This document shows positions 2,977-52,683 of a stretch of 64,000 bases of DNA, piece after piece (the first letter of the stretch is position 1; every line of letters starts with the position of its first letter). The translations under genes were made by a program, and so were the position numbers. Source of the DNA: a virus; IMG/VR virus record IMGVR_UViG_3300032174_000075, positions 1-64,000 of that record; one strand, given 5' to 3'. A model generated the notes under the pieces. The model worked only from the letters and a program-made list of their open reading frames with translations. It had not been told where the DNA came from and did not search any database.

Positions 2977-3948
2977 ATGGCGCAGCACTTCCTTCTAAGC
3001 ACAAAGGCCCGGACGCTCAGTCTGGCAAAGGTGCTGCGCCTTTCGGATCAGGAAGCGTATGACGCCTTCCGGGCGATCCGCTGGGCCGATAACGACGGCA
3101 AACCCTATTGCCCGAGGTGCGGTTGCGTAACGGTCTATGAGTTCGAGACGCGCAAGATTTTCAAGTGCAAGGGATGCCAGTCGCAATTCTCGCTTACGTC
3201 CGGGACGATCTTCGCGAGCCGGAAGCTCAACGTGCGCGACATTCTCGCCGCTATCGCAATCTTCGTGAACGGTGCGAAGGGCTACAGCGCGCTCCAATTG
3301 AGCCGCGATCTCGACGTACAGTACAAGACGGCCTTCGTTCTCGCGCACAAGCTTCGCGAAGTGCTCGGCAAGGAACAGGAAGCGGCGAAGCTCAAGGGCG
3401 ACGTTGAAATAGACTCCGCGTATTTCGGCGGATACGTGAAGCCTGCGAACATCAAAGAGCATCGCCTTGACCGCCGCTTGCTCGAAAACAAATCCGGCAA
3501 GCGCCAGTCCGTTGTCATCGTGCGGGAGCGCAACGGTAACTCGCTTCCGGCAGTCTTCAAGTCGGAAGGCGCGGCGCTGGCCTGGATCAAGAGCCGGATC
3601 AGCCTGGGAACGGTCGTGAACGCCGACGATGCGAGCGGGTGGAACGATCTAGCGTCCAAATACGAAATGAAGCGCATCAACCATCAAGAGGCGTATTCAC
3701 TCGACGGCGCGTGCACCAATCAAGCCGAGTCGTATTTCAGCCGCCTGCGTCGCGCAGAAATGGGTCATCACCATCACGTCAGCGGGCCGTACCTGCTTCG
3801 CTATGCCCAGGAAAGCGCGTGGCGCGAGGATGCCCGTCGCGTCGATAACGGCGCCCAGGTCCGCCGCGTGACGGAACTGGCGTTAAAGCGTGGGCCGTCA
3901 GTGGACTTCAGCGGCTACTATCAGCGCCACGTCAGGGCGGCGGGTTGA
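2977..3948 (+). CDS. IS1595-family DDE transposase
   Basis: Zn ribbon CPRCG...CKGC, SLTSGTIF, HTH SALQLSRDLDVQYKTAF, catalytic VEIDSAYFGG / NADD / NQAESYF; TTGTAT-17-TACATT promoter-like motif at 2919-2947. Confidence 0.95.
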   Translation: MAQHFLLSTKARTLSLAKVLRLSDQEAYDAFRAIRWADNDGKPYCPRCGCVTVYEFETRKIFKCKGCQSQFSLTSGTIFASRKLNVRDILAAIAIFVNGAKGYSALQLSRDLDVQYKTAFVLAHKLREVLGKEQEAAKLKGDVEIDSAYFGGYVKPANIKEHRLDRRLLENKSGKRQSVVIVRERNGNSLPAVFKSEGAALAWIKSRISLGTVVNADDASGWNDLASKYEMKRINHQEAYSLDGACTNQAESYFSRLRRAEMGHHHHVSGPYLLRYAQESAWREDARRVDNGAQVRRVTELALKRGPSVDFSGYYQRHVRAAG

Positions 3949-5407: not shown

Positions 5408-5737
5408 GTGGCACAGCGCGGAAATCCTCATCCTACAGGCGGCAAGCCGGACAAAAGGATGCGCGATGCCTTGATGATAGCCCTTAACCGAGAGGCTGTA
5501 GATAACGAAGGCCGGCCGACTAAGAAACTCTCCTTGATCGCGGACAAGCTGGTGGACTTGGCTATTGATGGCGATGTTCAGGCAATCCGCGAGATTAACG
5601 ACCGGATAGACGGCCGTTCCATTCAGGGCATCAGCGTGAATGATGGTGCGGGCATGAAGATCGTAATCGAGGGCGGTTTGCCGCAGGAAACGGATGCGCC
5701 CCCCGTAGACGACTCACTCGCGAACATGCGTGGCTGA
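5408..5737 (+). CDS. terS: terminase small subunit (putative)
   Basis: GNP..GGKP N-terminus, GDVQAIREI.DRIDG motif, overlaps the terL start. Confidence 0.75.
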   Translation: MAQRGNPHPTGGKPDKRMRDALMIALNREAVDNEGRPTKKLSLIADKLVDLAIDGDVQAIREINDRIDGRSIQGISVNDGAGMKIVIEGGLPQETDAPPVDDSLANMRG

Positions 5738-7001
5738 AGCCAGGGTCATCCTGCCGACTTTTCACAGGGCACAGGCAGAGATTTACCGGAACCGTGCGCG
5801 CTTCAATGTTCTTCGCTGCGGGCGCCGGTTCGGCAAAGACATCATGATGATCACGATGGCTGCGGACGATGCGGCCAGGGGCAAGAGGGCGGGGCTGTTC
5901 GCCCCCGAGTACAAGCAGCTCATCGAACCATTCGACGCGTTGGACGAGATACTGGCTCCGATCAGGAAACGGGCCAGCCGCAACGAAGGGTCGATCAGGA
6001 CGAAATCGGGTGGCGTTGTCGATTTCTGGTATCTGGATGACAACGAGTTGGCGGGACGTGGTCGAGAATACGACTGCGTCTACATCAATGAAGCGGCGTT
6101 CTCCAAATCACCCGACACGATAGACATTTGGAAGAAGTCGATCCGACCAACGCTTTTGACCCGCCGTGGCTCTGCCTGGGTCTTTGGCACTCCAAAGGGT
6201 ATTGACCCGGAGAACTTCTTCTACGCGTGCTGCACCGATCCGAAATACGGGTTCAAAGAGTTCCACGTACCGAGCAACGCCAATCCCTATGTTCCCCCGG
6301 AGGAGTTTGAACGGGAACGACTGTCGAATGATCCACTGATCTTTCAGCAGGAATTTCTCGCGGAATTTGTGGATTGGAGCGGGCATGCGTTCTTCGAGCG
6401 GGACAAACTGCTTGTAGACGGACAGCCAGTCAAAGCGCCCACACAGTGCGATGCGGTGTTCGCGGTGCTGGACACCGCCGTCAAGACTGGCAAAGAACAC
6501 GACGCCACAGCCGTTCTGTTTTGTGCGCGGTCTCGATTTGGCGGACACCCGCTGGTGCTGCTGGACTGGGATATTCTGCAAATCGAGGGCTCGCTGCTCG
6601 AAACCTGGCTTCCCACCGTCTACGAGAGATTGGAGAGTTTCGCGAAGGCGTGCGGTGCGAGAATGGGATCGCTCGGGGCTTTCATCGAGGACAAGGCCAG
6701 CGGAACGATCCTACTGCAACAGGCGGCGCGTCGCGGCTGGCAGGCCAGGGCGATAGACTCAAAGCTTACCGCAGTCGGTAAAGACGAGCGCGCCATTGCG
6801 GTGTCGGGGCATGTCTACAAAGGCATGGTGAAGCTGAGCGATCAGGCGTTCACGAAAACCTCGACATACAAGGGCGCTACCAGAAACCATCTCTTAGGCC
6901 AGGTCATAGGCTTCCGCATCGGCGACAAGGACGCTACGCGCCAAGACGATTTGCTCGACACGTTCTGCTATGCGGCGGCTATAGCTTTGGGGGATGAGTG
7001 A
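5730..7001 (+). CDS. terL: terminase large subunit
   Basis: Walker A CGRRFGKD, GRGREYD..YINEAA, motif III GTP, QQEFLAEF, nuclease DTA.K.G..HD and DDLLD. Confidence 0.95.
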   Translation: MAEARVILPTFHRAQAEIYRNRARFNVLRCGRRFGKDIMMITMAADDAARGKRAGLFAPEYKQLIEPFDALDEILAPIRKRASRNEGSIRTKSGGVVDFWYLDDNELAGRGREYDCVYINEAAFSKSPDTIDIWKKSIRPTLLTRRGSAWVFGTPKGIDPENFFYACCTDPKYGFKEFHVPSNANPYVPPEEFERERLSNDPLIFQQEFLAEFVDWSGHAFFERDKLLVDGQPVKAPTQCDAVFAVLDTAVKTGKEHDATAVLFCARSRFGGHPLVLLDWDILQIEGSLLETWLPTVYERLESFAKACGARMGSLGAFIEDKASGTILLQQAARRGWQARAIDSKLTAVGKDERAIAVSGHVYKGMVKLSDQAFTKTSTYKGATRNHLLGQVIGFRIGDKDATRQDDLLDTFCYAAAIALGDE

Positions 7002-33645: not shown

Positions 33646-36156
33646 ATGACCGTTGGCACTCAATCCGTGACGATCATCGGCAATGCCACAGGGCCTCGCG
33701 GTCCTGCCGGGCCTCAAGCGCCTGCGCCGACCGTTGCGGACGTGGAAACCTTTCGTAAGTCGAGCTTTGGCGATACCAGCGCGATCTTCGTCTCTGGGTA
33801 TTACGGCTTCGGCACGCCCGGGGGTGGGTTGTTCTTGTATGATCTAGCCGCCGGTGCCGACAATGGCGGAACGGTCTTGCATGATTCCGGAGGACGCCCC
33901 TTCGTCCGGCAGAACTACACAGGCTCCATCTATGAGTGGGGCGCGAAATGTGACGGCGTGATGTCCACTGCGCCAGGGGCGATAACCATAGGGTCCAGTA
34001 CATTTACGTCTCCAATTGCGTTGACGCAGGCCGATATCGGAAAGCCGATTGCCATTGTCGGCGCTGGGGCTAGCGATGGAACGCTCGCCACTACGATTTT
34101 GAACGTCGATGTTACTGGGTTAATTCTGACCCTTTCCACTCCCGCAGTTTCGACCGTTCCGACATATCTAGCGCGCGCCGCAGGGGCAATCGTCACGCCT
34201 GGCTCGGCTTATGTGGTCGGCGATCAAAGCGTTATGTCGGACGGCACGACTATCTTTGTTGCTTCCGTTGGTTCGTCCGGAGAGATCACAAAATTCCTTG
34301 TCATGGCGCAGGGTGCCAATATTGCGACGTTACCCGGCACGCTCACGCAAAGCAGCACGACAGGCGCTGGGCATGATTTTACATGCACGCTTTCATACAC
34401 TGCCAGCGGGCAGTTTGCCTATGCAACAAACGACGGCGCAATTCTGAATACCGCGCTGGCTTGGACCGCAGCAAATCCAAATGCGCCCGATGTAAGTATT
34501 CCACGAAAAGTTCTCGCGACCACGACGCCGATCTTGATGCCGTCCGGAGAAGTTCATCTTCGTGGTGGAGGAGGATTGAGTCTAAACAGCAACGCGGGGG
34601 CGGGCATTCTTGCTTTGGCGCCTATGAGCACGGGCGTCGTCTATCGCTCTTCGACGGCCGGAACAGGCGGGGGTGGCGTTCACAGCCTTTGGGTCGATGC
34701 TTACCAGCTCGCCCCATCCGCGACTGAACATGCCGGCGGACGAGATTTCATCTGGGAAAGCGTTTCTTCGCGAAATGGCCTAGTCCAGAACCACTATGCC
34801 CACGGCTCGACCACGGATGCTTGCGCGGGCGTGCTGTATACGCGGCCAGATGCGCGCGTTATCACGCAAACCTTCGCCAGAATCGACAAGGCCGCCCTCT
34901 ACGGGTTCAATTTCCAATCGAACGGAGGACCCGGAACTATCAATTCCCCGGCCTCATCGAACAGTCTGACCTCGGCTATCGAAGATGCGACCTCGGGACT
35001 TCATATCTCCAGCGGCAATATCTTCGGGGCATGGCCTTACGCGCCGCAATACGGGATCAATGTCACTGGGCAGGCAACCCTAATTGGAAATCAAACCGGA
35101 GGCCCGAGGATCGCGGGAGTGCGCGTCGCCGCCGGAAGGGTTCTGTGCCAAAATACTTACGTCCAGTTTGGCGCAACCACATATGCTGGCCCTGGAACTT
35201 ATGGCGTCCTGATCGAGGCTACTGGGTCCCCTTATTTTACCAACGATTGCGTGGTCATGGGGACGACGACCGATAGCGATATCGGCGCTGGCAATGTTAT
35301 CCACCAAAACGGTTCGCCAGGAACTGGGACCGTCGTCCAGAATAATGCCAACGCGACATATTCTTGGCCCCCGGCCTCGAATGCCTCTACCGCTTCGATA
35401 TGGGCTCAGCCGACGACAAATGGCCTAGCCTCGGAAGCGGCAACCCTTTTGTCGCCAGCAATGGGATTCACGCAGTTCAATCTCTATGACACGTTGTTCC
35501 GCGCGATAGGGCCAAGCATCCTTGCGAAGCTTGATTTGCTGTATGTCTTTGTCGCCTTGGACGAGATAACGGCGCTCATCAATATCGCGAACCCAAGTGG
35601 TCCGGTATGCCTGAAGGTCGGGGCGCCAATCTTCACGGCCCTTGGCGGGTATACTGGCAACGGTTCTGGTTATCTCGACAATCAGATCATCACGAGCACG
35701 CTCACCAAGTTCGTGTTGAACGATGCTTCAATGTTCGTTTGGACGGGGGATGATCAGGCCGCGAACAATTCGTATGCTGTAGGGCAAGCCAGTTCTCCGC
35801 GCTCGCGCATCAATCCAAGAACGGCCTCTTTGAAACTTCTTACGCGCTCGCAAAGCGCGACGGACGACTCTACGGTCGGCAACGTAGCAAACAGCATCGG
35901 TATGACTGGTTGGACGAGAAACGCAGCGCCGAGCTACACGCAATACAAGGACGCTGTTGTAGTCGGAACGCCGGCCACAGCTTCTACAGCGCGCGGAAAC
36001 GCCGACATGACATTTCTTTCCGATTCGCTGGCTACTTTCTCGACGCGAAACATTCAAGCATTTGCGTGCGGCGGTTATCTGACGCCCACGGAGGTGACGG
36101 GGCTATTCACTCCGATGCGCGCCTACCTCGTGTCGCAAGGCCAGCCGGTGACCTAA
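33646..36156 (+). CDS. tailspike / polysaccharide depolymerase (beta-helix) with a C-terminal lectin-like domain
   Basis: GYY...GGG.F...DNGGT head motif, WGAK.DG and D..ILN.AL pectate-lyase-3-like elements, N/G/T-rich helix. Confidence 0.75.
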   Translation: MTVGTQSVTIIGNATGPRGPAGPQAPAPTVADVETFRKSSFGDTSAIFVSGYYGFGTPGGGLFLYDLAAGADNGGTVLHDSGGRPFVRQNYTGSIYEWGAKCDGVMSTAPGAITIGSSTFTSPIALTQADIGKPIAIVGAGASDGTLATTILNVDVTGLILTLSTPAVSTVPTYLARAAGAIVTPGSAYVVGDQSVMSDGTTIFVASVGSSGEITKFLVMAQGANIATLPGTLTQSSTTGAGHDFTCTLSYTASGQFAYATNDGAILNTALAWTAANPNAPDVSIPRKVLATTTPILMPSGEVHLRGGGGLSLNSNAGAGILALAPMSTGVVYRSSTAGTGGGGVHSLWVDAYQLAPSATEHAGGRDFIWESVSSRNGLVQNHYAHGSTTDACAGVLYTRPDARVITQTFARIDKAALYGFNFQSNGGPGTINSPASSNSLTSAIEDATSGLHISSGNIFGAWPYAPQYGINVTGQATLIGNQTGGPRIAGVRVAAGRVLCQNTYVQFGATTYAGPGTYGVLIEATGSPYFTNDCVVMGTTTDSDIGAGNVIHQNGSPGTGTVVQNNANATYSWPPASNASTASIWAQPTTNGLASEAATLLSPAMGFTQFNLYDTLFRAIGPSILAKLDLLYVFVALDEITALINIANPSGPVCLKVGAPIFTALGGYTGNGSGYLDNQIITSTLTKFVLNDASMFVWTGDDQAANNSYAVGQASSPRSRINPRTASLKLLTRSQSATDDSTVGNVANSIGMTGWTRNAAPSYTQYKDAVVVGTPATASTARGNADMTFLSDSLATFSTRNIQAFACGGYLTPTEVTGLFTPMRAYLVSQGQPVT

Positions 36157-36518
36157 TGGCGCAGAACAACGCCGACTACAACGGAGTCCTGAGTTGTGTT
36201 CAGGACGACCGAGTCACGCCGATCTACCTGACGGCAGACGGAACGTCAGGCGGGACGCCGCTGCATCTTGAACTGTGGCTGCGCCAATCTCCGGGCGGCC
36301 CAGTCGTGGCGGAGTTTTCCACGGTAGACAATACCCTTGTTATTCTTGAGCCTCCGAACGACAATCAAATATCCTGGCACATTCCGTTCACGACGATGCA
36401 GACACTCGCGGCAAATCTCTATTACGGCGACGTGCTCGCGTTGGTGTCGGATACGTCTAGGCTTGGATACGGCTCGCTCTTGTTTCCAGTAGAGCAAGGA
36501 TCGACGGAAATGGAGTAG
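36156..36518 (+). CDS. hypothetical tail-associated protein
   Basis: ATG overlapping the tailspike TAA, 120 aa. Confidence 0.6.
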   Translation: MAQNNADYNGVLSCVQDDRVTPIYLTADGTSGGTPLHLELWLRQSPGGPVVAEFSTVDNTLVILEPPNDNQISWHIPFTTMQTLAANLYYGDVLALVSDTSRLGYGSLLFPVEQGSTEME

Positions 36519-36592
36519 AAGACAGCCTGTCTCTGAGGTGCCGCGCCCGGTCACGCTTGAATGCTGGCCGGGCTTTGCATATCCGGGCGATT

Positions 36593-37429
36593 TCAAAAAT
36601 GCATCCTGTCGCTATCTATGGTGTCGATCATCCGCAAGCCGTCGGTGCCGGGTATTTCTTGGTCCAGCGAGATCGGCGCGAATAAAAATGGATGCATTCT
36701 CCGCACACGAGCCAGCGCCTTCGGAACAGCCGTCTTCATTTCACCGGGACGGAGTGAGCCCTCTAAGATCGCAAGGATGATGTCTTGGCAGACATCCGCT
36801 CGAATGAAGTGAGGGACCTGCGCCGGAACCATCCGATTGACCATTGCTAGAAGGCCAGTCGGGTCGTCGCGTTCGCTGTCCAAATATGGATAGCATTTTT
36901 CCCGCGTTGGCGTATGGCGAAGGTCGTTTTCGCGATTGACGAGCTTTCGCCTGTTCCTGATTACCGAGCACAACGACTTGCTTATCCCAAGGCGTTCGCA
37001 TATCTCAGTTGGCCTGATGCCTTGATGGCTGAGCGCTATCACGGCCTTTGTTGTTTCGTTAAATTCCCGCGCGCTATATCGACGAATCTTTATGCCAGTG
37101 TCGGCCAAAATTCGCTTCACTTTATCTATTGAAACCAAAAACTTCTCTCCGACCTTTTCAAGCGTCGCGCCAGACAGATATTCGGCGACAATTTCCGCCG
37201 TCGGAAACGTCGCCCTTTCTTGCTGATAGCGCTTCTTGATTAGATCGAAGCCATGGCGTTCTGTAACGCCGTTGCGAATGGCGACTTGGCGAATTGTCTC
37301 CCGCGAAAGCCCATATACACTCGCTATTGACTGCAACGAATGCTCTCCGCTTTGTAACATCGCAATGATTTCGCAGTTCCTCGCGGTCCTGTCGGCACAT
37401 GGGGGAGGCTTTTTGCGAGCGCCTGTCAC
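36593..37429 (-). CDS. multi-HTH protein with a C-terminal sigma-70 region 2/3.2-like segment
   Basis: Three HTHs (SLQSIASVYGLSRETIRQ, TLEKVGEKFLVSIDKVKRIL, RPTEICERLGISKS); RADVCQDIILAILE...ISLDQEIPGTDG. Confidence 0.65.
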   Translation of the reverse strand: MTGARKKPPPCADRTARNCEIIAMLQSGEHSLQSIASVYGLSRETIRQVAIRNGVTERHGFDLIKKRYQQERATFPTAEIVAEYLSGATLEKVGEKFLVSIDKVKRILADTGIKIRRYSAREFNETTKAVIALSHQGIRPTEICERLGISKSLCSVIRNRRKLVNRENDLRHTPTREKCYPYLDSERDDPTGLLAMVNRMVPAQVPHFIRADVCQDIILAILEGSLRPGEMKTAVPKALARVRRMHPFLFAPISLDQEIPGTDGLRMIDTIDSDRMHF

Positions 37430-37617
37430 TGCCTCTTCAACTCCTGTATCCTCTCCAGCGCCTCCATGAGGGCGATGATCTGGGGGGATGGTGAGCGTAA
37501 TCCGGTTTCCATTTCTCGCACTCGCTTGTTCGGGCTTTCGAGGCGGAGCTTTTCGCCGAACTGAGTCACGGATAGCCCGAGGCGGAGACGGAGCGCGCGG
37601 ATTTCAAAAGGGGTCAT
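37426..37617 (-). CDS. Xre/HigA-like HTH protein
   Basis: MTP.EIRALR.RLGLS..QF...L......V..ME.G.R.PS; ATGA overlaps on both sides. Confidence 0.8.
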   Translation of the reverse strand: MTPFEIRALRLRLGLSVTQFGEKLRLESPNKRVREMETGLRSPSPQIIALMEALERIQELKRQ

Positions 37618-39344
37618 TTGAATGCTGCCTCCGCTAAGGCCATGACCTTCTCCCGATAGGTTTTGGGCCGGCCTTCGTCAGTAGGCGGCAGAACAGTCAT
37701 AAGCGTTGCTTTCTCTGCGTCAAAAACAATTCGCACATTTTTACCCCGCACTCGTATCCATCCCTCGAAAGCGTAGCCGTGATCATCGCCTTTGTGCGCC
37801 GACTTCACACCAGACACTCTTCCTTCTGAGACCGCCGCGCGCATCTCCCGGTTTACAGCCGTTGTCCATTTGATCCCATAGCGCTCTTCTAATCTGGCAT
37901 GATTGTGCAACGTGCCATCGTCTAAATGCCGCAACTGTTTGGGGTCGAGATTCTGGAGAATTTCCTCGGCGTCAAAATAATCTACGTATTGATCATCTTT
38001 CATATGTAGACGGCGCTGTTCGTCGCGCACCTGATGATGGTAGACATCATCGACCTGTGATGGCGGATAGAAGCGGTGGTCAATCGCATCCCAAGCGCGC
38101 CGTTTCTCGTTCATCTGCTCGACGCGCCACTCATCTTGAGAAATCGACGCTTCAAGGCGGTCATATTCATCGCCGTCATTCTCGGCAGTTAATGACAGCG
38201 CGTGACCCGCTTGTTCAAAATTTTCCCTATAGAACTTCGTCACAAACCAACGGACGTTTGTCTGCTTGGCCTTAAGTTCGGCTATCGTGACGCGTCCTTC
38301 TAGCATCGCCAGCATAATCTCTTGTACGATATCGGAGCGCATATGAGGCGGGATAGATTTTGGTATAAGAGAGTTCGCTTCCAAGAGATCGGCGTGCTCG
38401 TCACGAACCTTCGCGATATATGGAAACTGTAGCAGTTCGGCGCCAGCATGATTGTGAAGGCGAAGGACCTTCTTGGGCTGCGGCAATATTTGCCGCCAAG
38501 TATATGACGGCTGAAAGCCCTTATCGAGAGCGTACCTCACGATTGATTGCGGAGAACGCCCAAGCGCATTTGCCGCTAATTCGACGTTCGCATTGTTCTC
38601 ACAGAACCTTTCAAGCGCAGTCTTTTCGGATTGAGTCCACCAAGTTCGCGTACTCATCCAAGCGCCGCCGACGTAGCGGTTTTGCCCTATTTCGTAATTG
38701 TGCGCTCTGGCGTCTCGCTCTGCGAACATGAAAGAGCGAAGCTTTTTACGGGCTGTGCAAGAACTTTTCTTCCCATAGCCGACATGCGCCTCTAAAACTT
38801 TCCCCCACGATGATCCGTTATTTACATCGTTGATCGCAACGATGGTCATAAGAACCTGCTTCCACGTCAGTTTTGTGGCGCGAAACGGCGTGCCTGATGT
38901 AAGTGAGTAACTGTACCCGCATCTCTGGCACTTAAAGAGGTGCCTCCCCGTATCTCTCGTAATATGATAGCTCACCCCATGGGCGCACTCTGGGCATATC
39001 GGCTCTCCGTCGGTTTCTGGCCAACGAAGCTGTTTGAAAAGTTCGCGAGCCGCCCATTCCGAAAGAGGTTCAATCGCCTCTGGAGTGAGGGCCTTTGCGG
39101 CAGGGCTAGTCATGAAAGCGCTGCCGGAAGTGTAGCAAGAGCGGCATACTCCAATGCTGCCGGGAAACTTATTGGCCCCACATTTTTTGCACGTTGAATA
39201 TGCTTCTTCTCGGTCCTCCTTAAGGAGATTTGCTGCGTCGCTTTCATTTGCCGCCAATATGGCGTTGTTCGATATAAACGCGCCGCCGTGTTCCTTGTAG
39301 AGCGGCTTACGGCCTTTGTTGTGTCGCGACCTACGCGTGCCCAT
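37614..39344 (-). CDS. multidomain protein: Zn finger, IS1595-type Zn ribbon/HTH (no DDE), Myb/GcrA-like HTH, sigma-like segment, RelE-like domain
   Basis: LRWP..DGEPICPEC...FKCQRC..SLTSGTPF aligns with both transposases in the window; see findings. Confidence 0.7.
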   Translation of the reverse strand: MGTRRSRHNKGRKPLYKEHGGAFISNNAILAANESDAANLLKEDREEAYSTCKKCGANKFPGSIGVCRSCYTSGSAFMTSPAAKALTPEAIEPLSEWAARELFKQLRWPETDGEPICPECAHGVSYHITRDTGRHLFKCQRCGYSYSLTSGTPFRATKLTWKQVLMTIVAINDVNNGSSWGKVLEAHVGYGKKSSCTARKKLRSFMFAERDARAHNYEIGQNRYVGGAWMSTRTWWTQSEKTALERFCENNANVELAANALGRSPQSIVRYALDKGFQPSYTWRQILPQPKKVLRLHNHAGAELLQFPYIAKVRDEHADLLEANSLIPKSIPPHMRSDIVQEIMLAMLEGRVTIAELKAKQTNVRWFVTKFYRENFEQAGHALSLTAENDGDEYDRLEASISQDEWRVEQMNEKRRAWDAIDHRFYPPSQVDDVYHHQVRDEQRRLHMKDDQYVDYFDAEEILQNLDPKQLRHLDDGTLHNHARLEERYGIKWTTAVNREMRAAVSEGRVSGVKSAHKGDDHGYAFEGWIRVRGKNVRIVFDAEKATLMTVLPPTDEGRPKTYREKVMALAEAAFK

Positions 39345-39510
39345 GGCGCCCTTCCTCCATGAGCGTCACGTTGTATTTCTCGGTCAGGTCTGAAATCCAG
39401 TCGCGCAGAAGATCGGCGCGCAGCACCCAATCGAGCGATTCCCAGTCGGCCGGAAACTGGACGGAACCTTCGCCATCCGCGAAACTTGCGAGCAATTTGG
39501 GCTTTGTCAT
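39331..39510 (-). CDS. 59-aa hypothetical protein, first gene of the antisense operon
   Basis: Not in ORF track; GAGGAG RBS, MTKPKLLASFADGEGSVQFPADW...GHA*, overlaps the start at 39344. Confidence 0.6.
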   Translation of the reverse strand: MTKPKLLASFADGEGSVQFPADWESLDWVLRADLLRDWISDLTEKYNVTLMEEGRHGHA

Positions 39511-39532
39511 CTTCGACTCCTCGCCCTCGTTA

Positions 39533-39860
39533 GGGCTGTAGCGGCGCGGGTGGTGCGCCTATCGACGGCTAGGATTGAGCCACAGCCCCGTTGACAGGTC
39601 AAGGCTGAAAGCGCACATTTCCGCTCGGGAACGCCGCCGCTACAGCTAGGCGTGGCTTGGCCGGGAGAGACGGCTGTGTCGCTGCATCGGCGAGCCTTTG
39701 CCTTAACGGCAATCCTTCACGGAGGGTTGAAGCCTATCGTAACAGACGGCTTGCGCAAAGGCTCACCGCTGCAACGATAATCGGAGACGGGCATGCGCGA
39801 GAAAACTTGCATCGGCGACGGCGGCTCTTCGTTCGTCGGCGCTGGCAACTCCGCCTAACC
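39533..39860. ncRNA. candidate structured non-coding/leader RNA
   Basis: Perfect 12-bp stem 39535-39546/39635-39646 and long stem ~39683-39701/39755-39773, each enclosing several hairpins; no credible ORF. Confidence 0.5.
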
Positions 39861-39879
39861 ACCAAGGAGAACATCCCTC

Positions 39880-40206
39880 ATGGCCGCGCCCTCCGCTCCG
39901 GTTATCGTCGCCACGAAGTCAGCGTGGCTTTCAAAGACGAATTGGGTTGCTGGCCTGACAGGTCTTGGAGCGATCGTCACGCAGTTCACGCCACTATTGC
40001 CGCCAGAGTGGCAAGGGAAGGCGACGGCCTTTGTCGCGCTGCTTGGTGCGGTCGGGGTGTGGATCACAAGGACGTTTTTCACTACCAGTCTCACGCCATC
40101 ATCTACGGCTGACCTTCCTTCCGCTGCCAATGCCATCCGAGCCTCTGGCGCATCCGAGGCGCAGGTTGTGGACGCCTTGAACGCCGCTCAGATTACCGCG
40201 AAATAG
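39880..40206 (+). CDS. holin-like two-TM protein
   Basis: KSAWLSKTNW motif, two TMs, strong RBS. Confidence 0.65.
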   Translation: MAAPSAPVIVATKSAWLSKTNWVAGLTGLGAIVTQFTPLLPPEWQGKATAFVALLGAVGVWITRTFFTTSLTPSSTADLPSAANAIRASGASEAQVVDALNAAQITAK

Positions 40207-47980: not shown

Positions 47981-48175
47981 ATGACAATTTTTCGAGTGAG
48001 GTTCCAAGTGCAAGGCGGCCATGTGCATTGTCGCCTGTTCGCCGCTGCGCAGCGTGGCGTGACGTTCGCCAAGTGCGGCGACTTCGTCGTGCGCAAAGGC
48101 GCGGAGTTTCGTGACTTTGTGGCGGCTTTCGAGAATGCTGATTCGGAACTATGCACTTGGGAAACCCAAGCCTAG
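47981..48175 (+). CDS. small hypothetical protein
   Basis: GGHVHCRLF...GVTFAKCG. Confidence 0.5.
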   Translation: MTIFRVRFQVQGGHVHCRLFAAAQRGVTFAKCGDFVVRKGAEFRDFVAAFENADSELCTWETQA

Positions 48176-48287
48176 GTCTAGCGGCAAGTTGTGGACACCA
48201 TGACGGACCGTGACCGCTCCTCCACAGCGACTCAGATACCATTCCCGGAATGGTGGCAGCATCGGGCTGCTGATGAAGGGCGTGTAG

Positions 48288-49058
48288 ATGGCGCGCGACA
48301 CGATACTTGGGCTCGGGCTTACGTTCGCGCTTCTGTTTATTCAGTATCGGTATAGAGACATGCCCGCTCCAATTACGGCGGCCGGCATTGCCTTTGGGGT
48401 CGCGCTGATGCTTTGGCCCTACTTGCCCTTTCCACAGAAATACAATGCGCCCATTTTTGTGGCCCTCTGTTTGTTGGCTTTGTGCGTAGGCGTGGCTGAT
48501 TGGGTGTACGAGATATATAGTCAGACGGAGATCACCGAGCGGCCCATTCAAAATGCCCGTCCGGTAACGCCAAAGGCATCACCGCAGCATGCAACCAGCG
48601 CCGCAGGGTCGCCTGTTGTAGCCCCCGAGAAGCCTCACGTTGACCCGCGACGAAGATTCGTCGTTCCACTTCGCGCGTTCTATGCTGAGGGCGATGAAAT
48701 TATTCGCTTTTTGGCCGGCGCAAATACAGAAGATGAATTTAAGAAAAGGCAAGACCGGTTGTGGGATTGGACGACTCGCATCGGACTGTGGACATGCAAG
48801 AACATGGGGGAATCTGCGATGGCCAAAGCAATACCCCTTACACTTGATCCTTATGTTGCCGCCGCCCATCCTATTCCCGGGGAAGAATTGCTCTCTGCGC
48901 AAAAGAACGCGCTGCTGACTATGATAGGCGTTGTTCAAGAAAGATTGTCGTCTCTAATAGAGCACGACACATGGGACCCAATTGGCGAGCCAATCTTACC
49001 AAAGGAAGGGTGTGAGGCTGTGGTTGGAAAGGCAACCGATCCGGCGGCAAAGTTCTGA
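48288..49058 (+). CDS. IS-associated passenger: three N-terminal TMs plus helical domain
   Basis: Lower GC, convergent with the second transposase. Confidence 0.7.
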   Translation: MARDTILGLGLTFALLFIQYRYRDMPAPITAAGIAFGVALMLWPYLPFPQKYNAPIFVALCLLALCVGVADWVYEIYSQTEITERPIQNARPVTPKASPQHATSAAGSPVVAPEKPHVDPRRRFVVPLRAFYAEGDEIIRFLAGANTEDEFKKRQDRLWDWTTRIGLWTCKNMGESAMAKAIPLTLDPYVAAAHPIPGEELLSAQKNALLTMIGVVQERLSSLIEHDTWDPIGEPILPKEGCEAVVGKATDPAAKF

Positions 49059-49061
49059 CGT

Positions 49062-49988
49062 TCATGCAGCCCGCTTCCGAATTGGGTCCTGATACATCAA
49101 CCGTGCGCCTGCGCTAAGTGCAATCGCCTTCATGGTTCGCTCCGCGTCCGAACTCTTGCGCTCGTTCCAGCGATAGGAGAACTCGTTGCAGTAGCGGTGC
49201 AGGTGGGTCTTGCTGACGCTGTGGAATGAGCCGGTGATACCGCGCTTAAGCAGCGCGAAATAAGACTCCGCATCGTTTGTCGAGACGCCGTCGCGGGCAT
49301 ACTCGAACTTCGCATGATTGACCGTCTCGTGGCCGCCCTCGAACCACTTGCCCACGCCACGATAAGAAATGAGCTGGTCGGTCTGGATTTGCGAAGACGG
49401 ATGCACATTGTTGCGGATCGCGTCTTGCAACGTCTTGGCGGTGATATTCGCAATCGGCCAAGAGCGGACGCGCCCGCCACGCTCGACCAATGCGACGACG
49501 GGAGCCTTATCGGTCCCGCGACCTTCCTTGGACTTCTTGCCGCTATGTTTGCGCGGCTTGCCGCCGACATAGGTTTCATCCGCGACCACGATGCCTTGAA
49601 GGAGCCCCTTCAATGGATTTTGCGCCATCGCGTGCCGGATGCGGTGGTTCAAGTGCCACGCGGTGCGATAGGAACCGAGGCCAAGCTGGCGCTGCAATTG
49701 AAGGGCGCTTACGCCTTTCTTTGAAGAACACATGATCGAGAAAGCCATGAGCCAAATCCTGATCGGAAGGTGCGAGGCTTCCATGATCGTGTTCACGGTG
49801 ACGCTGAATTGCTGCGCGCAGCCATTGTTGCATTTCCAAACGCCGGGACGATGCTTCTTGCCCTTGAATTTTGTGTGGCCTTCGACGCAGCCGCAATGCG
49901 GACAAACCGGACCCTTCGGCCAGACGATGCCCTCTAGCGTTTCGCGGGCTTGATCTTCGGTCATTTTGGACAGTTCGGAGAGGTTCAT
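49062..49988 (-). CDS. IS1595-family DDE transposase (second, distinct subgroup)
   Basis: CPHCG...WKC...C, SKKGVSALQLQRQLG, VVADETYVGG, IQTD, TNDAESYF, HLHRYCNEF. Confidence 0.95.
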   Translation of the reverse strand: MNLSELSKMTEDQARETLEGIVWPKGPVCPHCGCVEGHTKFKGKKHRPGVWKCNNGCAQQFSVTVNTIMEASHLPIRIWLMAFSIMCSSKKGVSALQLQRQLGLGSYRTAWHLNHRIRHAMAQNPLKGLLQGIVVADETYVGGKPRKHSGKKSKEGRGTDKAPVVALVERGGRVRSWPIANITAKTLQDAIRNNVHPSSQIQTDQLISYRGVGKWFEGGHETVNHAKFEYARDGVSTNDAESYFALLKRGITGSFHSVSKTHLHRYCNEFSYRWNERKSSDAERTMKAIALSAGARLMYQDPIRKRAA

Positions 49989-50056
49989 CGGTTCGGCCCT
50001 TGATCGTGTATGCAGTATGTAATACATTCGAAGCCGTTGTCAAGCGGAGTGCATAC

Positions 50057-50275
50057 ATGGATTTCAAGAAAGCTACCGATGAGTTGCTGGCCGGGATCAG
50101 CCATCAGGAATTGGCGGATGCCTTGGGCTGTTCGGTGCCAACCGTGCGGCAGGCCAGGCTGGACGAAGGCGCCAAGGCCCGCAGGAGCCCGCCAGAGGGC
50201 TGGCAGGCGGTTGTGGCGAAGCTTGCCAAGGCGCGGGCGGCTGGGCTCCTACGGCTCGCGGGTCGGCTCCAATAG
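50057..50275 (+). CDS. small HTH protein divergent from the transposase
   Basis: SHQELADALGCSVPTVRQAR HTH; GGAG RBS. Confidence 0.75.
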   Translation: MDFKKATDELLAGISHQELADALGCSVPTVRQARLDEGAKARRSPPEGWQAVVAKLAKARAAGLLRLAGRLQ

Positions 50276-50293
50276 GCCGGTTGACAAGAATCG

Positions 50294-50383
50294 TGCCCGC
50301 AGCGAGACTCGAACTCGCACGGCTCCGGCGAAGGAACCGGGGGATTCCAGGTCCCCCGCGTCTACCAGTTCCGCCATACGGGC
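50294..50383 (-). tRNA. tRNA-Leu-type body (class II) with TGG anticodon, C33 and no encoded CCA
   Basis: GCCCGTA TG GCG GAACTGGTAGA CGC G GGGGA CCTGGAA TCCCC CGGTTCCTTCGCCGGAGCCG T GCGAG TTCGAGT CTCGC TGCGGGC A; all stems pair. Confidence 0.8.
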
Positions 50384-50438
50384 CACGATTGAGGGCTTCT
50401 CCGGCCCGGGTAGGACCAAGACCGGAGAGCCTGTCAGC

Positions 50439-50468
50439 GACGCCGCCTTCGGGCGGCGTTTTGCTTTC
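50439..50468 (+). terminator. intrinsic terminator-like hairpin
   Basis: GACGCCGCC-TTCG-GGCGGCGTT followed by TTGCTTT. Confidence 0.65.
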
Positions 50469-50653
50469 TAGAGGCTGCTAAGGCGGTTCCATGGGCGAAT
50501 CTCCTGGGGTTGCCTTCGGAGATTGGCGAGACGGGATTTCGCCGTCGAAATCCGCGCGTAATTCGCCGCCATTTCGCCGCCGATTTTGGCAAGCATTGAT
50601 TTCAAAGAGTTTTTTAGATCGAAACCCGCCGGAAGGTGTCGAAAATTCGCCAC

Positions 50654-51778
50654 TTAGACGTTCTTTGCGGTTGGCTTCCGCCCCCTTTTTAGGGTGCCTG
50701 TACCGCGAAGTTTGCGAATCGCCGCTCGGGTTACAGATTTCCCTGGAAACATGCCTTCCGCCGATTTCCACGCATGGTCTTCTGTTTGCTCGGCCTCAGT
50801 AAAAAGCTTGGTGTAGAGCGCGTACCATTCTTTCAGGTGGCCTTCTGCTACCGGTCGCCCGTTTTCTTCTTCTTGTTCTGCGATCTCTGTCGTTGGCGAA
50901 GGATCGGGAGCCGCGGAAGGTCCCGCTTGAGGATTGAAGTCTTTCGGAAGCAAAGCGCGAACGCCGTTTGGTTCAAATCTAACGCCGCAATACCTCACCG
51001 TCGTAGGGTCGGCTACCAGTCTACTGGTCGGATCAAGGTAGATTGTCGCATCGCCGGTTTTCCAAAAGCTGTGCTTCGAATCTATACCCTGAATGTGACC
51101 CCAAAAGTCGCCGTCAATAGGCACGAACTCGGATAGTTCGGGTGGGTTGAATCCAGTTTTCCACGATTCTATGGCAGCTGCAGATTTGAGGACACTGCCT
51201 CGCAAGCGCTCCATAATTGCGGTCACGGCCGCTTCCGCACCTAGCGCCCGTTGAAGGACAGCCAACGACTCGTTCGGTGCCAGCCACGCAAGGAACTCTT
51301 CGGGCGAGATGGTTTTGTCAGGCGCGGTTTCGGTGCGCACCGGGAGGTCGACCGTCGCGACCTTCTCTTTTTGCGTTGGCAATATTGGAAATGGCTTCGG
51401 CAAATCAGCAATCATTGCGCTGATGCCAGCGGGATCAAATCGTATGCCAAATACCCTTACCGTTCGGTGCATAGAATGCTTTGAGCCGGCGAAAAGATGA
51501 AGAGAGAAATTGATGTCGGCTGTATCCCACCAGTCGGGGGATTTGCTTGACACTTGAGACCAATACCTTTGAGGAATGAGAAACCCTAGTTTGAGTTCAG
51601 TCGGATTTTCAAATGCTGCGGATTTGGAAGCTGCTCGTATCTGTCCCCCTTTTAGACGTTCCAGAATCGCGCGCGACGCAACACCAATATCCGGAATGCG
51701 CTCTTGAATAAGGGTCAAGGCCTGTCTGGGTAAGAGCCAGGTAACGAGCTCGTCGGCTGCTAAGCCGCTATCTGACAT
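50654..51778 (-). CDS. hypothetical protein with two tandem homologous domains and a C-terminal HTH-like tail
   Basis: Start MSDSG at 51778; duplicated W....AL...AI.ERL.G...W...W.T.D...G.RF.P.G motif. Confidence 0.65.
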
Positions 51779-51895
51779 TCCCCACTCCGGCAGGGCTCCG
51801 AGATGTGAGAGGGGAAGCGCGCCGGAGTGCCGCGCTTGTCGGATGGCCGTCCTATCCCCTGCACAAGTTATAGCTGAATCGGGTATGCTTGGGAC

Positions 51896-52027
51896 ATGGC
51901 AAAAGCGAAAACCAAGAAGCCGCCAGCCGAGAACAAGCCCATTGGGTTTGAAGACTTTGTCCGCGCCGCCATGGCGACAGGGAAGCCGCCAAAAGCCAAG
52001 CCCAAGAAGCGGAAGGCGAAAAAATGA
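51896..52027 (+). CDS. 43-aa basic peptide
   Basis: MAKAKTKKPPAENKPIGFEDFVRAAMATGKPPKAKPKKRKAKK*, ATGA-coupled to the next gene. Confidence 0.5.
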   Translation: MAKAKTKKPPAENKPIGFEDFVRAAMATGKPPKAKPKKRKAKK

Positions 52028-52314
52028 GAACCTATGGCGCGGTTGCGGTCGCAATCATTCTGGCTAGCTGTGGCGGTCCATCCAAAAAGCAGGACGTGGC
52101 TTCCTGCAACCTGGAAGCCCTGCGGGTCTATAGCCATGAGCACGGCCCCGACCTAAGCGGCCTCATCGGCCAATACACGGCCACCTGCATGGAGGCGAAG
52201 GGCTACAAGATGACCTTCACGGCGAGAGAATGTGCCGCCCATGGCGGCGACTTCTTGCTCCAGGAAATTGAAGCAGACTGCTACGTCAGGGAAAATTCCC
52301 TTTGGGCACAATAG
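52024..52314 (+). CDS. small lipoprotein
   Basis: Lipobox LASC; CMEAKGY motif. Confidence 0.65.
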   Translation: MRTYGAVAVAIILASCGGPSKKQDVASCNLEALRVYSHEHGPDLSGLIGQYTATCMEAKGYKMTFTARECAAHGGDFLLQEIEADCYVRENSLWAQ

Positions 52315-52318
52315 GTTG

Positions 52319-52683
52319 ATGCCGGTTTGCGAAGTGCATAGTTCCGTCCGAAGAAACCCTGCGCCGAATGTCCATGGCGTCGCGATGTAAAGCCTGGCCG
52401 CTTTCCGCCAGAGAGATACCGCGCCTTGGCATGCACTGCTGAGGATATGAGCAGCCACATCTTCGCGTGTCACAAGAGCGCGGACGACAAGCCTACCGCC
52501 TGCGCAGGATTTATCCTTCGTGGCGCGGATCACAATTTGTCCTTGCGCCTCGCATATTGCCATGGCGAAGTGGGCGAGATATCGGATGGTGGCTATCCGC
52601 TTTTCGAGAACTATCGGCAGATGGCACATGCGAACGGGGTGAAGCCTAATGACCCCGCGCTTAGAAACTGCAGGGATCGTTAG
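52319..52683 (+). pseudogene. DUF6283-like Cys-rich gene with an apparent 1-nt frameshift near the 5' end
   Basis: PCAECPWR...FACH...CAGF frame lacks its own start (TAG at 52339); ATG 52319 is one base out of frame. Confidence 0.55.

Follow-up and report, generated by a model that had tools for sequence, protein, structure and literature searches.

Gene organisation of the locus

The stretch of DNA analysed here (the window) comprises the first 64,000 nucleotides (nt) of the IMG/VR virus record IMGVR_UViG_3300032174_000075, a record of 74.8 kb rated complete by CheckV; the stretch was found in one sequencing run only, a soil metagenome, and no RNA run was listed. It contains a minus-strand operon whose second gene encodes a protein of 576 amino acids (aa), in which the DNA-binding region of an IS1595-type transposase precedes a further helix-turn-helix (HTH), a conserved four-helix domain and a C-terminal alpha/beta domain. 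Judged by sequence comparison, this protein is a member of a modular, so far undescribed family of phage DNA-binding proteins. Late genes on the plus strand extend from those for terminase and portal as far as one for an 836-aa tail fibre, whose end is at 36156. The next plus-strand block begins at 39880, and between the two sit four minus-strand open reading frames (ORFs) with overlapping stops and starts:

39331..39510, minus strand: 59-aa acidic ORF, the first operon gene, with a GAGGAG Shine-Dalgarno sequence upstream
37614..39344, minus strand: 576-aa ORF, a real ORF and the second operon gene
37426..37617, minus strand: 63-aa Xre-type HTH gene, matching HTH_3 and the transcriptional regulator family phrog_14076
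36593..37429, minus strand: 278-aa gene, a paralogue of the 576-aa gene by BLASTP, with matches in Pfam and to phrog_24127

The stop of the 59-aa ORF overlaps by 14 nt the start of the 576-aa gene, which is itself fixed because the N-terminus of its homologues is conserved. The Xre gene overlaps the stop of the 576-aa gene as ATGA, an overlap that was read directly, and is in turn GTGA-coupled to the 278-aa gene. Since the overlaps include the 59-576-aa and Xre-278-aa junctions, these genes form a translationally coupled operon of four members in the order 59 aa, 576 aa, Xre and 278-aa paralogue, and not a gene pair. An earlier reading of the locus, made from the sequence alone (the sequence-only reading), had placed a 63-aa HTH gene directly downstream of the 576-aa gene with ATGA coupling, and both the junction and the HTH_3 match of the small protein bear this out; the pair is not, however, the complete unit, as the 59-aa and 278-aa genes are also coupled. 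Because the operon is inverted relative to its flanking blocks, a promoter of its own is implied. The 59-aa ORF had no family match in Pfam, PHROG or NCBIfam and no homologue at 11 related loci.

The N-terminal module derives from an IS1595 transposase

From its N-terminus onwards, the 576-aa protein is made up of the following parts:

39288..39344, minus strand: aa 1-19, an Arg/Lys-rich peptide, MGTRRSRHNKGRKPLYKEH, nearly invariant at the N-terminus of members (the tag)
39132..39191, minus strand: aa 52-71, a short additional CxxC...CxxC insert of zinc-ribbon-like type that varies between homologues
38664..39116, minus strand: aa 77-227, an IS1595-transposase-derived region with a Zn ribbon (aa 95-144), an HTH and a remnant of the first catalytic strand
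38514..38657, minus strand: aa 230-277, a GcrA/Myb-type three-helix HTH with the motif W.WT..E...L......ALGRS..SI
38190..38438, minus strand: aa 303-385, the conserved four-helix core domain (alignments A4 and A6)
37950..38189, minus strand: aa 386-465, an acidic loop, SL....DDER.YDE, and then a long helical extension (AF2 helices)
37617..37928, minus strand: aa 473-576, a C-terminal alpha2-beta4(-alpha) domain, replaced by HNH or absent in sisters

Pfam matched the protein at one place only, aa 95-144, with PF12760 (Zn_ribbon_IS1595; E 9.2e-11; 42 bits, the cut-off being 25.4), and phrog_25593 matched at aa 75-214. BLASTP aligned aa 77-212 with the local transposase at 2977..3948 (31% identity, E 2e-18) and aa 79-179 with that at 49062..50027 (26% identity, E 2e-6). 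Both local transposases carry the catalytic domain DDE_Tnp_IS1595 (PF12762; E 1e-34 to 1e-36), whereas no such domain was detected on the 576-aa protein even at E<=1. In the MAFFT alignment YEIGQNRYVGG of the 576-aa protein stands opposite VEIDSAYFGG/VADETYVGG of the transposases, with Y224, G226 and G227 invariant and the Asp changed to Gly, and the family consensus at this former catalytic strand is EIGRxRYxxG. These comparisons confirmed, on the strength of Pfam, BLASTP and alignment, that aa ~93-227 follow the local transposases through the Zn ribbon and HTH to the first catalytic strand, that the first catalytic Asp has been lost, and that the N-terminal part derives from the DNA-binding region of an IS1595 transposase without its catalytic core.

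What the protein has in common with IS1595-family transposases (ISXO2-like; PF12760 + PF12762) thus ends at the first catalytic strand and takes in Zn ribbon, SLTSGT motif and HTH. The protein differs from them in the lack of DDE, in the setting of the module between a basic peptide and an unrelated phage core, and in the occurrence of the module as a separate 175-aa gene in Zavarzinella (see below). It is a clear bacterial case in which a protein that is no transposase has taken up the DNA-binding domain of one. The insert at aa 52-71, which in alignment A2 was present only in P0001 and P0004, gave a weak match to phrog_20467 (E 0.0026).

The sequence-only reading had gone further and proposed that the protein may bind IS1595 ends and link excision, transcription and an RNase toxin or abortive function. 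Truncated-transposase regulators such as Tn5 Inh and IS1 InsA are encoded by the insertion sequence (IS) itself and match their own transposase exactly. Like these, the 576-aa protein holds the DNA-binding part of a transposase without catalysis and could in principle occupy IS ends; unlike these, it has a module that shares just 26-31% identity with the resident transposases, and the cassette has no IS end near it. The local IS terminal inverted repeat (23 bp, 48144-48166 / 52324-52346, 91% complementary) had no further copy in the window, an IS1595 DDE gene was present in only one of five related viral records (L002), and the core occurs mostly without the module, all of which speaks against binding of IS1595 ends; the proposed link between excision, transcription and toxin also found no support, as nothing bears on excision. 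We considered whether the Zn-ribbon module tracks the co-resident IS and rejected this, the module of the L002 protein being closer to window transposase 1 (2977..3948) than to the transposase resident in L002 itself. It is worth noting that both phages with the fused full-length form (the window and L002) also hold IS1595 copies, although two cases are insufficient to carry the IS-end idea. As a separate observation, the 23-bp repeats at 48144-52346 enclose the second IS1595 transposase, several passenger ORFs and a tRNA-Pro(UGG) gene (50293-50383).

The second HTH and the conserved four-helix core

The W.WT..E...L HTH that had been read at aa ~235-277 was recovered as a domain of GcrA/Myb type, aa 230-277 having the fold of the N-terminal DNA-binding domain of the GcrA family, and its family-wide motif is W.W...E...L......ALGR....I. 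This fold is shared with GcrA and phage GcrA-like proteins. The domain that follows it has no detectable likeness to the sigma-70-interacting C-terminal domain of GcrA, although no comparison aimed at that domain was made; no GcrA Pfam match was obtained in the scans made (phage proteins and 70 family members), and the protein is not known to bind DNA in a methylation-dependent way.

The core domain that follows carries the motif YPYI..R.EHADLL..N.L.P...P..MRADICQE.MLA.LEG...WF..KFY. Two of its residues, R336 and Q341, are invariant, and D338, P308, N324, P328, E349, G350 and F367 are nearly so; the helix signature R-x-D-x-x-Q(E) is invariant across the family. Its helical extension, with helices at 178-208, 216-236 and 242-251 of the AF2 model, is conserved in matches to the 'tail2' hidden Markov model (HMM). 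The core is paralogous to aa 180-276 of the 278-aa neighbour (BLASTP E 9e-10), a protein whose N-terminal side holds three HTHs (one Sigma70_r4-like, one HTH_23) and whose C-terminal part is a core copy ending in an ISLD..IPG motif; cores of this type recur directly upstream of tag-bearing genes (L040, L041 and L049).

The segment at aa ~306-400 had been called sigma-like. Foldseek returned nothing in PDB at E<=0.001 for the core model; its non-significant rows were rich in sigma factors, and the ESM Atlas listed Sigma70_r2 clusters at 0.88. Among the other structure and profile searches, the best Foldseek match in BFVD was an unnamed 274-aa viral protein (E 6.6e-3), and a sequence-profile search of PDB gave only 2lvs_A, an HTH of unknown function. 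When aligned by hhalign with 14 extracytoplasmic function (ECF) sigmas of Zavarzinella, RaDICQEimLA of the core fell on the region 2.1/2.2 helix AEDxxQEtFl (P 0.011, probability 3.9%), while PF04542, sigma region 2, had no match in the phage genome at E<=10 nor in the 70 members at E<=1e-3. The D338/Q341 pair is suggestive because sigma factors grip the beta-prime clamp helices with residues arranged as D-x-x-Q-E. Likenesses to domain 2 of sigma-70 (ECF) thus comprise four helices of matching lengths and a D-x-x-Q-E helix that aligns with region 2.1/2.2; in contrast, there is no HMM match, the scores are at noise level, and the HTHs are N-terminal rather than forming a C-terminal region 4. A sigma-2-only phage factor is known in T4 gp55. 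The conserved four-helix domain stands, but sigma identity did not reach significance, and the likeness is a convergent but unproven lead. By eye, the ends of the 278-aa paralogue and its relatives (L004 5950-6807), ISLD..IPG / LSLDAPIGGED...D.I.D, look like sigma-70 region 3.2, and one HTH of the 278-aa protein matches Sigma70_r4 at E 2.3e-8, the HTHs being N-terminal and the order hence permuted.

A modular family of phage proteins

A word-based search turned up 38 relatives of the 576-aa protein. HMMER, run over 1.84 billion cluster representatives, gave 1032 proteins at E<1e-3, of which 282 also passed E<1e-10; the majority align with aa ~220-460 only. A single odd ORF has thereby become a defined family of several hundred phage proteins. 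Four of these (P0006, P0009, P0010 and P0013) have their parts in an unchanged order across 95% of the length and, together with L002, are full-length homologues with the same domain order, so that the architecture recurs elsewhere and a one-off chimera is refuted. Common to the family are the 19-aa basic N-terminal peptide, the GcrA/Myb-type HTH, the four-helix domain and, after it, the helical extension. For the core, Pfam has no family in any of the 70 members, and PHROG has no named one; tblastn gave no match in 50,697 GenBank phage records, and a literature search gave no description of the family.

A census with one HMM per module, scanned over 170 retrieved proteins, found the full order (tag, Zn-HTH, HTH, core, extension and C-terminal domain) in six, and four more lacked only the tag. 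The C-terminal alpha/beta (BECR-like) domain was present in 31 of the 170 and an HNH domain took its place in seven, the majority having neither; since most members lack a nuclease-like end, that end is dispensable for the function of the family. At the N-terminus, Zn_ribbon_IS1595 was found in 25 of 70 members, and others have HTH_23, resolvase or DUF3268 as their module. The profile matches show the IS1595 module to be an optional insert and the C-terminal end to be swappable (absent, HNH or alpha2-beta4).

In a prophage of Zavarzinella formosa DSM 19928 (L001 5932-7306) the gene is split in two: a 175-aa gene for Zn ribbon and HTH, which lacks DDE and shares 50% identity with the N-terminus of window transposase 1, overlaps the start of a 285-aa gene that encodes tag, HTH and core. 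That the same few modules are fused, split and reordered argues that they work together. The shuffling of modules is clear from this fission, from the swappable C-terminal ends and from the portable 19-aa peptide in phages of distant hosts. An Xre-like 84-aa gene was also seen ~380 nt downstream of the split gene.

The tag also heads unrelated protein bodies, in L040, L041, L049 and P0172-P0178. At three loci (L040 99-911, L041 5330-6049 and L049 6403-7548) the second body has the motif RDIL..LF.ERKI..QL..GR.WQ and belongs to no Pfam or PHROG family; in L049 an HNH domain is inserted behind the tag. Each of these three genes directly follows a gene with a core copy of the 278-aa type at its C-terminus, and a stand-alone Zn-ribbon/HTH gene comes next in L049 and L040. 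Synonymous positions of the tag codons vary freely among 11 loci; selection therefore acts on the peptide and not on the DNA, and a conserved DNA or RNA element was rejected on this ground. A capsid-targeting leader and an AT-hook or arginine-rich nucleic-acid-binding arm were considered as possible roles of the peptide. By eye, the N-termini of the core proteins in L041 (4524-5330) and L049 (5275-6306) resemble IS5/IS1182-type (DUF772-like) transposase regions. They had no Pfam match at E<=0.01, and would represent a second transposase-derived DNA-binding module on the same core.

The C-terminal domain and a possible effector role

The AF2 model of aa 462-576, built from 21 sequences (pLDDT 81.7), consists of two helices, four strands and a final helix. 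H480 and R488 are invariant and R484, G490, G534 and T550 nearly so, with H480, R484 and R488 one turn apart on one face of helix 1. A RelE/BECR-type C-terminus had been proposed earlier. Foldseek found nothing in PDB at E<=0.001, and the top VIA neighbours were all BECR toxins (RelE/colicin D/CdiA-type), every score being below the noise level; RelE, YafQ, MqsR and HigB structures were among the weak neighbours, and the ESM Atlas gave small viral hypothetical proteins (TM 0.59-0.70), a DUF4258 cluster (0.48/0.62) and PBECR3. The hhalign comparison with 20 DUF4258 sequences was colinear over 62 columns and not significant (P 0.084, probability 0.7%), one of 20 column shuffles scoring better. 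No Pfam or NCBIfam model of RelE, ParE, HigB, YafQ, BrnT or DUF4258 matched at E<=1, PF14076 (DUF4258) had no match in the phage genome at E<=10, and a word-based search found no stand-alone short relatives of aa 462-576. Thus the fold neighbours lean towards the proposal, while neither a family model nor a significant profile match upholds it, and RelE/BECR is the best available guess for the modelled fold, at a little better than even odds. Colicin D-type BECR RNases have a catalytic His/Lys cluster on the helix equivalent to helix 1. The best indirect argument for a nuclease role is that the domain is swapped for HNH in sisters.

Like RelE/ParE, colicin D, CdiA-CT and DUF4258 toxins, the domain has a predicted a-a-b-b-b-b order with His/Arg on helix 1, lies at the C-terminus and has a small coupled gene next to it; unlike these toxins of ~100 aa, it is one domain of a 576-aa DNA-binding protein, and its partner gene is not conserved. 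In the polymorphic toxins and phage polyvalent proteins (concepts of the Aravind laboratory) a constant leader and body bear exchangeable nuclease ends, with variable small genes downstream. The present family resembles them in its constant leader and body, exchangeable nuclease-type ends and variable small downstream genes, and differs in that most members lack a toxin-like end, the body consists of DNA-binding modules, and no secretion or packaging signal was recognised.

An alternative is that the protein is a conflict or exclusion effector, a DNA-tethered nuclease of a prophage accessory ('moron') cassette directed against competing phages or mobile elements, with the BECR-like or HNH end as the weapon and a coupled small gene (Xre, the HTH gene of L002, possibly the 59-aa ORF) controlling or neutralising it. 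A body that is conserved while its C-terminal end changes (none, HNH or BECR-like) recalls polymorphic effectors, the invariant or nearly invariant His480, Arg484 and Arg488 share one face of helix 1, and BECR toxins, DUF4258 and PBECR3 appear among the neighbours just described. The position of the operon, inverted within the late region, is a common place for accessory genes, and in L082, a distant relative, the tail genes adjoin a homologue of the 164-aa downstream gene without such a cassette. In contrast, most members have no nuclease-like end, the fold scores all lie under the noise line of the tool, the DUF4258 comparison is not significant, and the small partner genes are not conserved. 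We regard this effector role as rather unlikely, though second in probability among the explanations weighed here.

Gene context could be read at about eight loci, drawn from IMG/VR, one genome and JGI metagenomes. Inverted cassettes were found at late-region borders in the window, in L004, where tail-fibre and lysozyme-like ORFs (read by eye) lie beside the cassette, and in L049, where it sits inside a baseplate/tail module. A further explanation is a selfish, free-standing homing endonuclease-like element that would cut cassette-free alleles and so spread between phages. In its favour, the cassettes break into late modules that are otherwise co-linear, and do so in inverted orientation; the combination of Zn-ribbon/HTH modules with a nuclease end also resembles the layout of phage homing endonucleases, and the 278-aa neighbour matches the DNA-binding parts of PHROG 'homing/HNH endonuclease' families. 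However, HNH occurs in only seven of the 170 proteins and most have no nuclease, the ~150-aa core and 19-aa tag are under strong purifying selection across phages of distant hosts, which is unexpected for homing endonucleases, and BECR domains are RNases and not DNases. A homing cassette is accordingly the least probable of the explanations weighed here, and we think it very unlikely.

The Xre gene and a proposed toxin-antitoxin pair

The Xre protein matched HTH_3 (E 4.4e-5, 23.9 bits against a cut-off of 23) and showed a faint resemblance to the MqsA family, far below the cut-off (E 0.012). By tblastn it had no homologue at 11 related loci. Apart from the window, this type of C-terminal domain could be inspected at one locus only, L002, where the Xre position is taken by an unrelated 116-aa HTH/coiled-coil gene that overlaps the stop; at the two loci inspected with this domain, no conserved cognate partner was thus found beside the putative toxin.

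The sequence-only reading had seen here a toxin with a HigA-like antitoxin. Such a type II toxin-antitoxin-like pair, in which a RelE-like RNase would be neutralised by the HigA-like Xre protein while the IS1595 module binds IS1595 ends, agrees with the toxin-first order and ATGA overlap, with the small HTH_3 partner and its faint MqsA likeness, and with the RelE, YafQ, MqsR and HigB structures among the weak neighbours; both fused full-length viral records also hold an IS1595 transposase. The overlap and gene order fit a toxin-antitoxin module, but the 'toxin' is the end of a 576-aa protein, and Xre is coupled onward to the 278-aa regulator gene. The fold lead is weak, with no RelE, ParE, HigB or DUF4258 model matching, Xre has no homologue beside any relative, and the gene coupled in L002 is unrelated. 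On the side of the IS ends, the cassette region lacks the local terminal repeat; the module, as mentioned above, shares only 26-31% identity with the local transposases, and in L002 it has a closer match than the transposase resident there. The toxin and antitoxin were therefore not upheld, and this pair is an improbable account of the locus.

A proposed site-specific regulator with a common output domain

The domain anatomy of the 576-aa protein, its conservation, the shuffling of modules and the structure of the operon are observed, while site-specific binding, contact with RNA polymerase and any nuclease activity are inferred. The best reading of the unit, on the sequence evidence, is an accessory four-gene cassette that would encode modular sequence-specific DNA-binding regulators, possibly contacting RNA polymerase and with an optional nuclease-like effector. 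For the 576-aa protein itself we tentatively favour, at somewhat less than an even chance, a site-specific DNA-binding regulator in which stacked modules share a common output domain, with a possible contact to RNA polymerase. The stacked DNA-binding modules would place the protein on specific phage or host DNA sites, where the four-helix domain would act as the common output, most probably by contacting RNA polymerase through its sigma-region-2.2-like D-x-x-Q-E helix, or by pairing with the paralogue. The role of the C-terminal domain would be optional, as a nuclease-type effector or a nucleic-acid-binding add-on. A conserved core with variable N-terminal modules, mostly without a nuclease end, supports this regulator, as do the fission of the Zavarzinella gene, the tag on bodies beside core genes and the late-border position. 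Several points weigh on the other side: a regulator has no obvious need of a nuclease-like tail; the conserved His/Arg face of the modelled C-terminal domain, together with the swap of this domain for HNH, suggests an enzymatic effector, a better fit for conflict systems; and the context comes from only about eight loci.

A bolder form of the regulator is that HTH, four-helix domain and tag together define a new class of phage transcription take-over factors, which we consider rather unlikely. Here the four-helix domain would be a diverged sigma-region-2 module docking on RNA polymerase, and promoter choice would come from interchangeable N-terminal modules captured from transposases (IS1595 here, HTH_23-type or resolvase elsewhere). 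The nuclease end of some members (HNH or BECR-like) would act on nucleic acid at the bound site, and the portable peptide would be a shared docking or nucleic-acid-binding handle. If the four-helix domain does contact RNA polymerase, this would be a new, permuted kind of sigma-like factor in phage biology; if the C-terminal domain is an active nuclease, the protein would be a DNA-tethered effector of new layout.

Candidate control region and other features of the window

Upstream of the 59-aa ORF lies a perfect inverted repeat:

39535..39646, no strand assigned: candidate operon control region with a perfect 12-nt inverted repeat, GCTGTAGCGGCG / CGCCGCTACAGC

The arms, at 39535-39546 and 39635-39646, flank a promoter-like TTGACC-17 nt-CTCAAT site on the minus strand, read by eye, and none of 100 shuffles reached four matches to the 12-nt repeat at <=1 mismatch. 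When 36100-40000 was scanned for consensus promoters and terminators, sites were no more numerous than in shuffles, and the TTGACC-17-CTCAAT site was not among them. The arms could be candidate operator sites for Xre or another cassette protein. A second inverted repeat, of 23 nt (39679-39701/39755-39777), has arms that are 87% complementary, with 53 nt between them. It is situated in the leader of the plus-strand block that begins at 39880, and may form a regulatory RNA hairpin. Elsewhere in the window, ~1.8 kb downstream of the first IS1595 copy, the terminase large-subunit ORF (5730-7001, 423 aa) covers just positions 264-590 of a PHROG profile that is 807 positions long, and may be either a truncated gene or of a short type.

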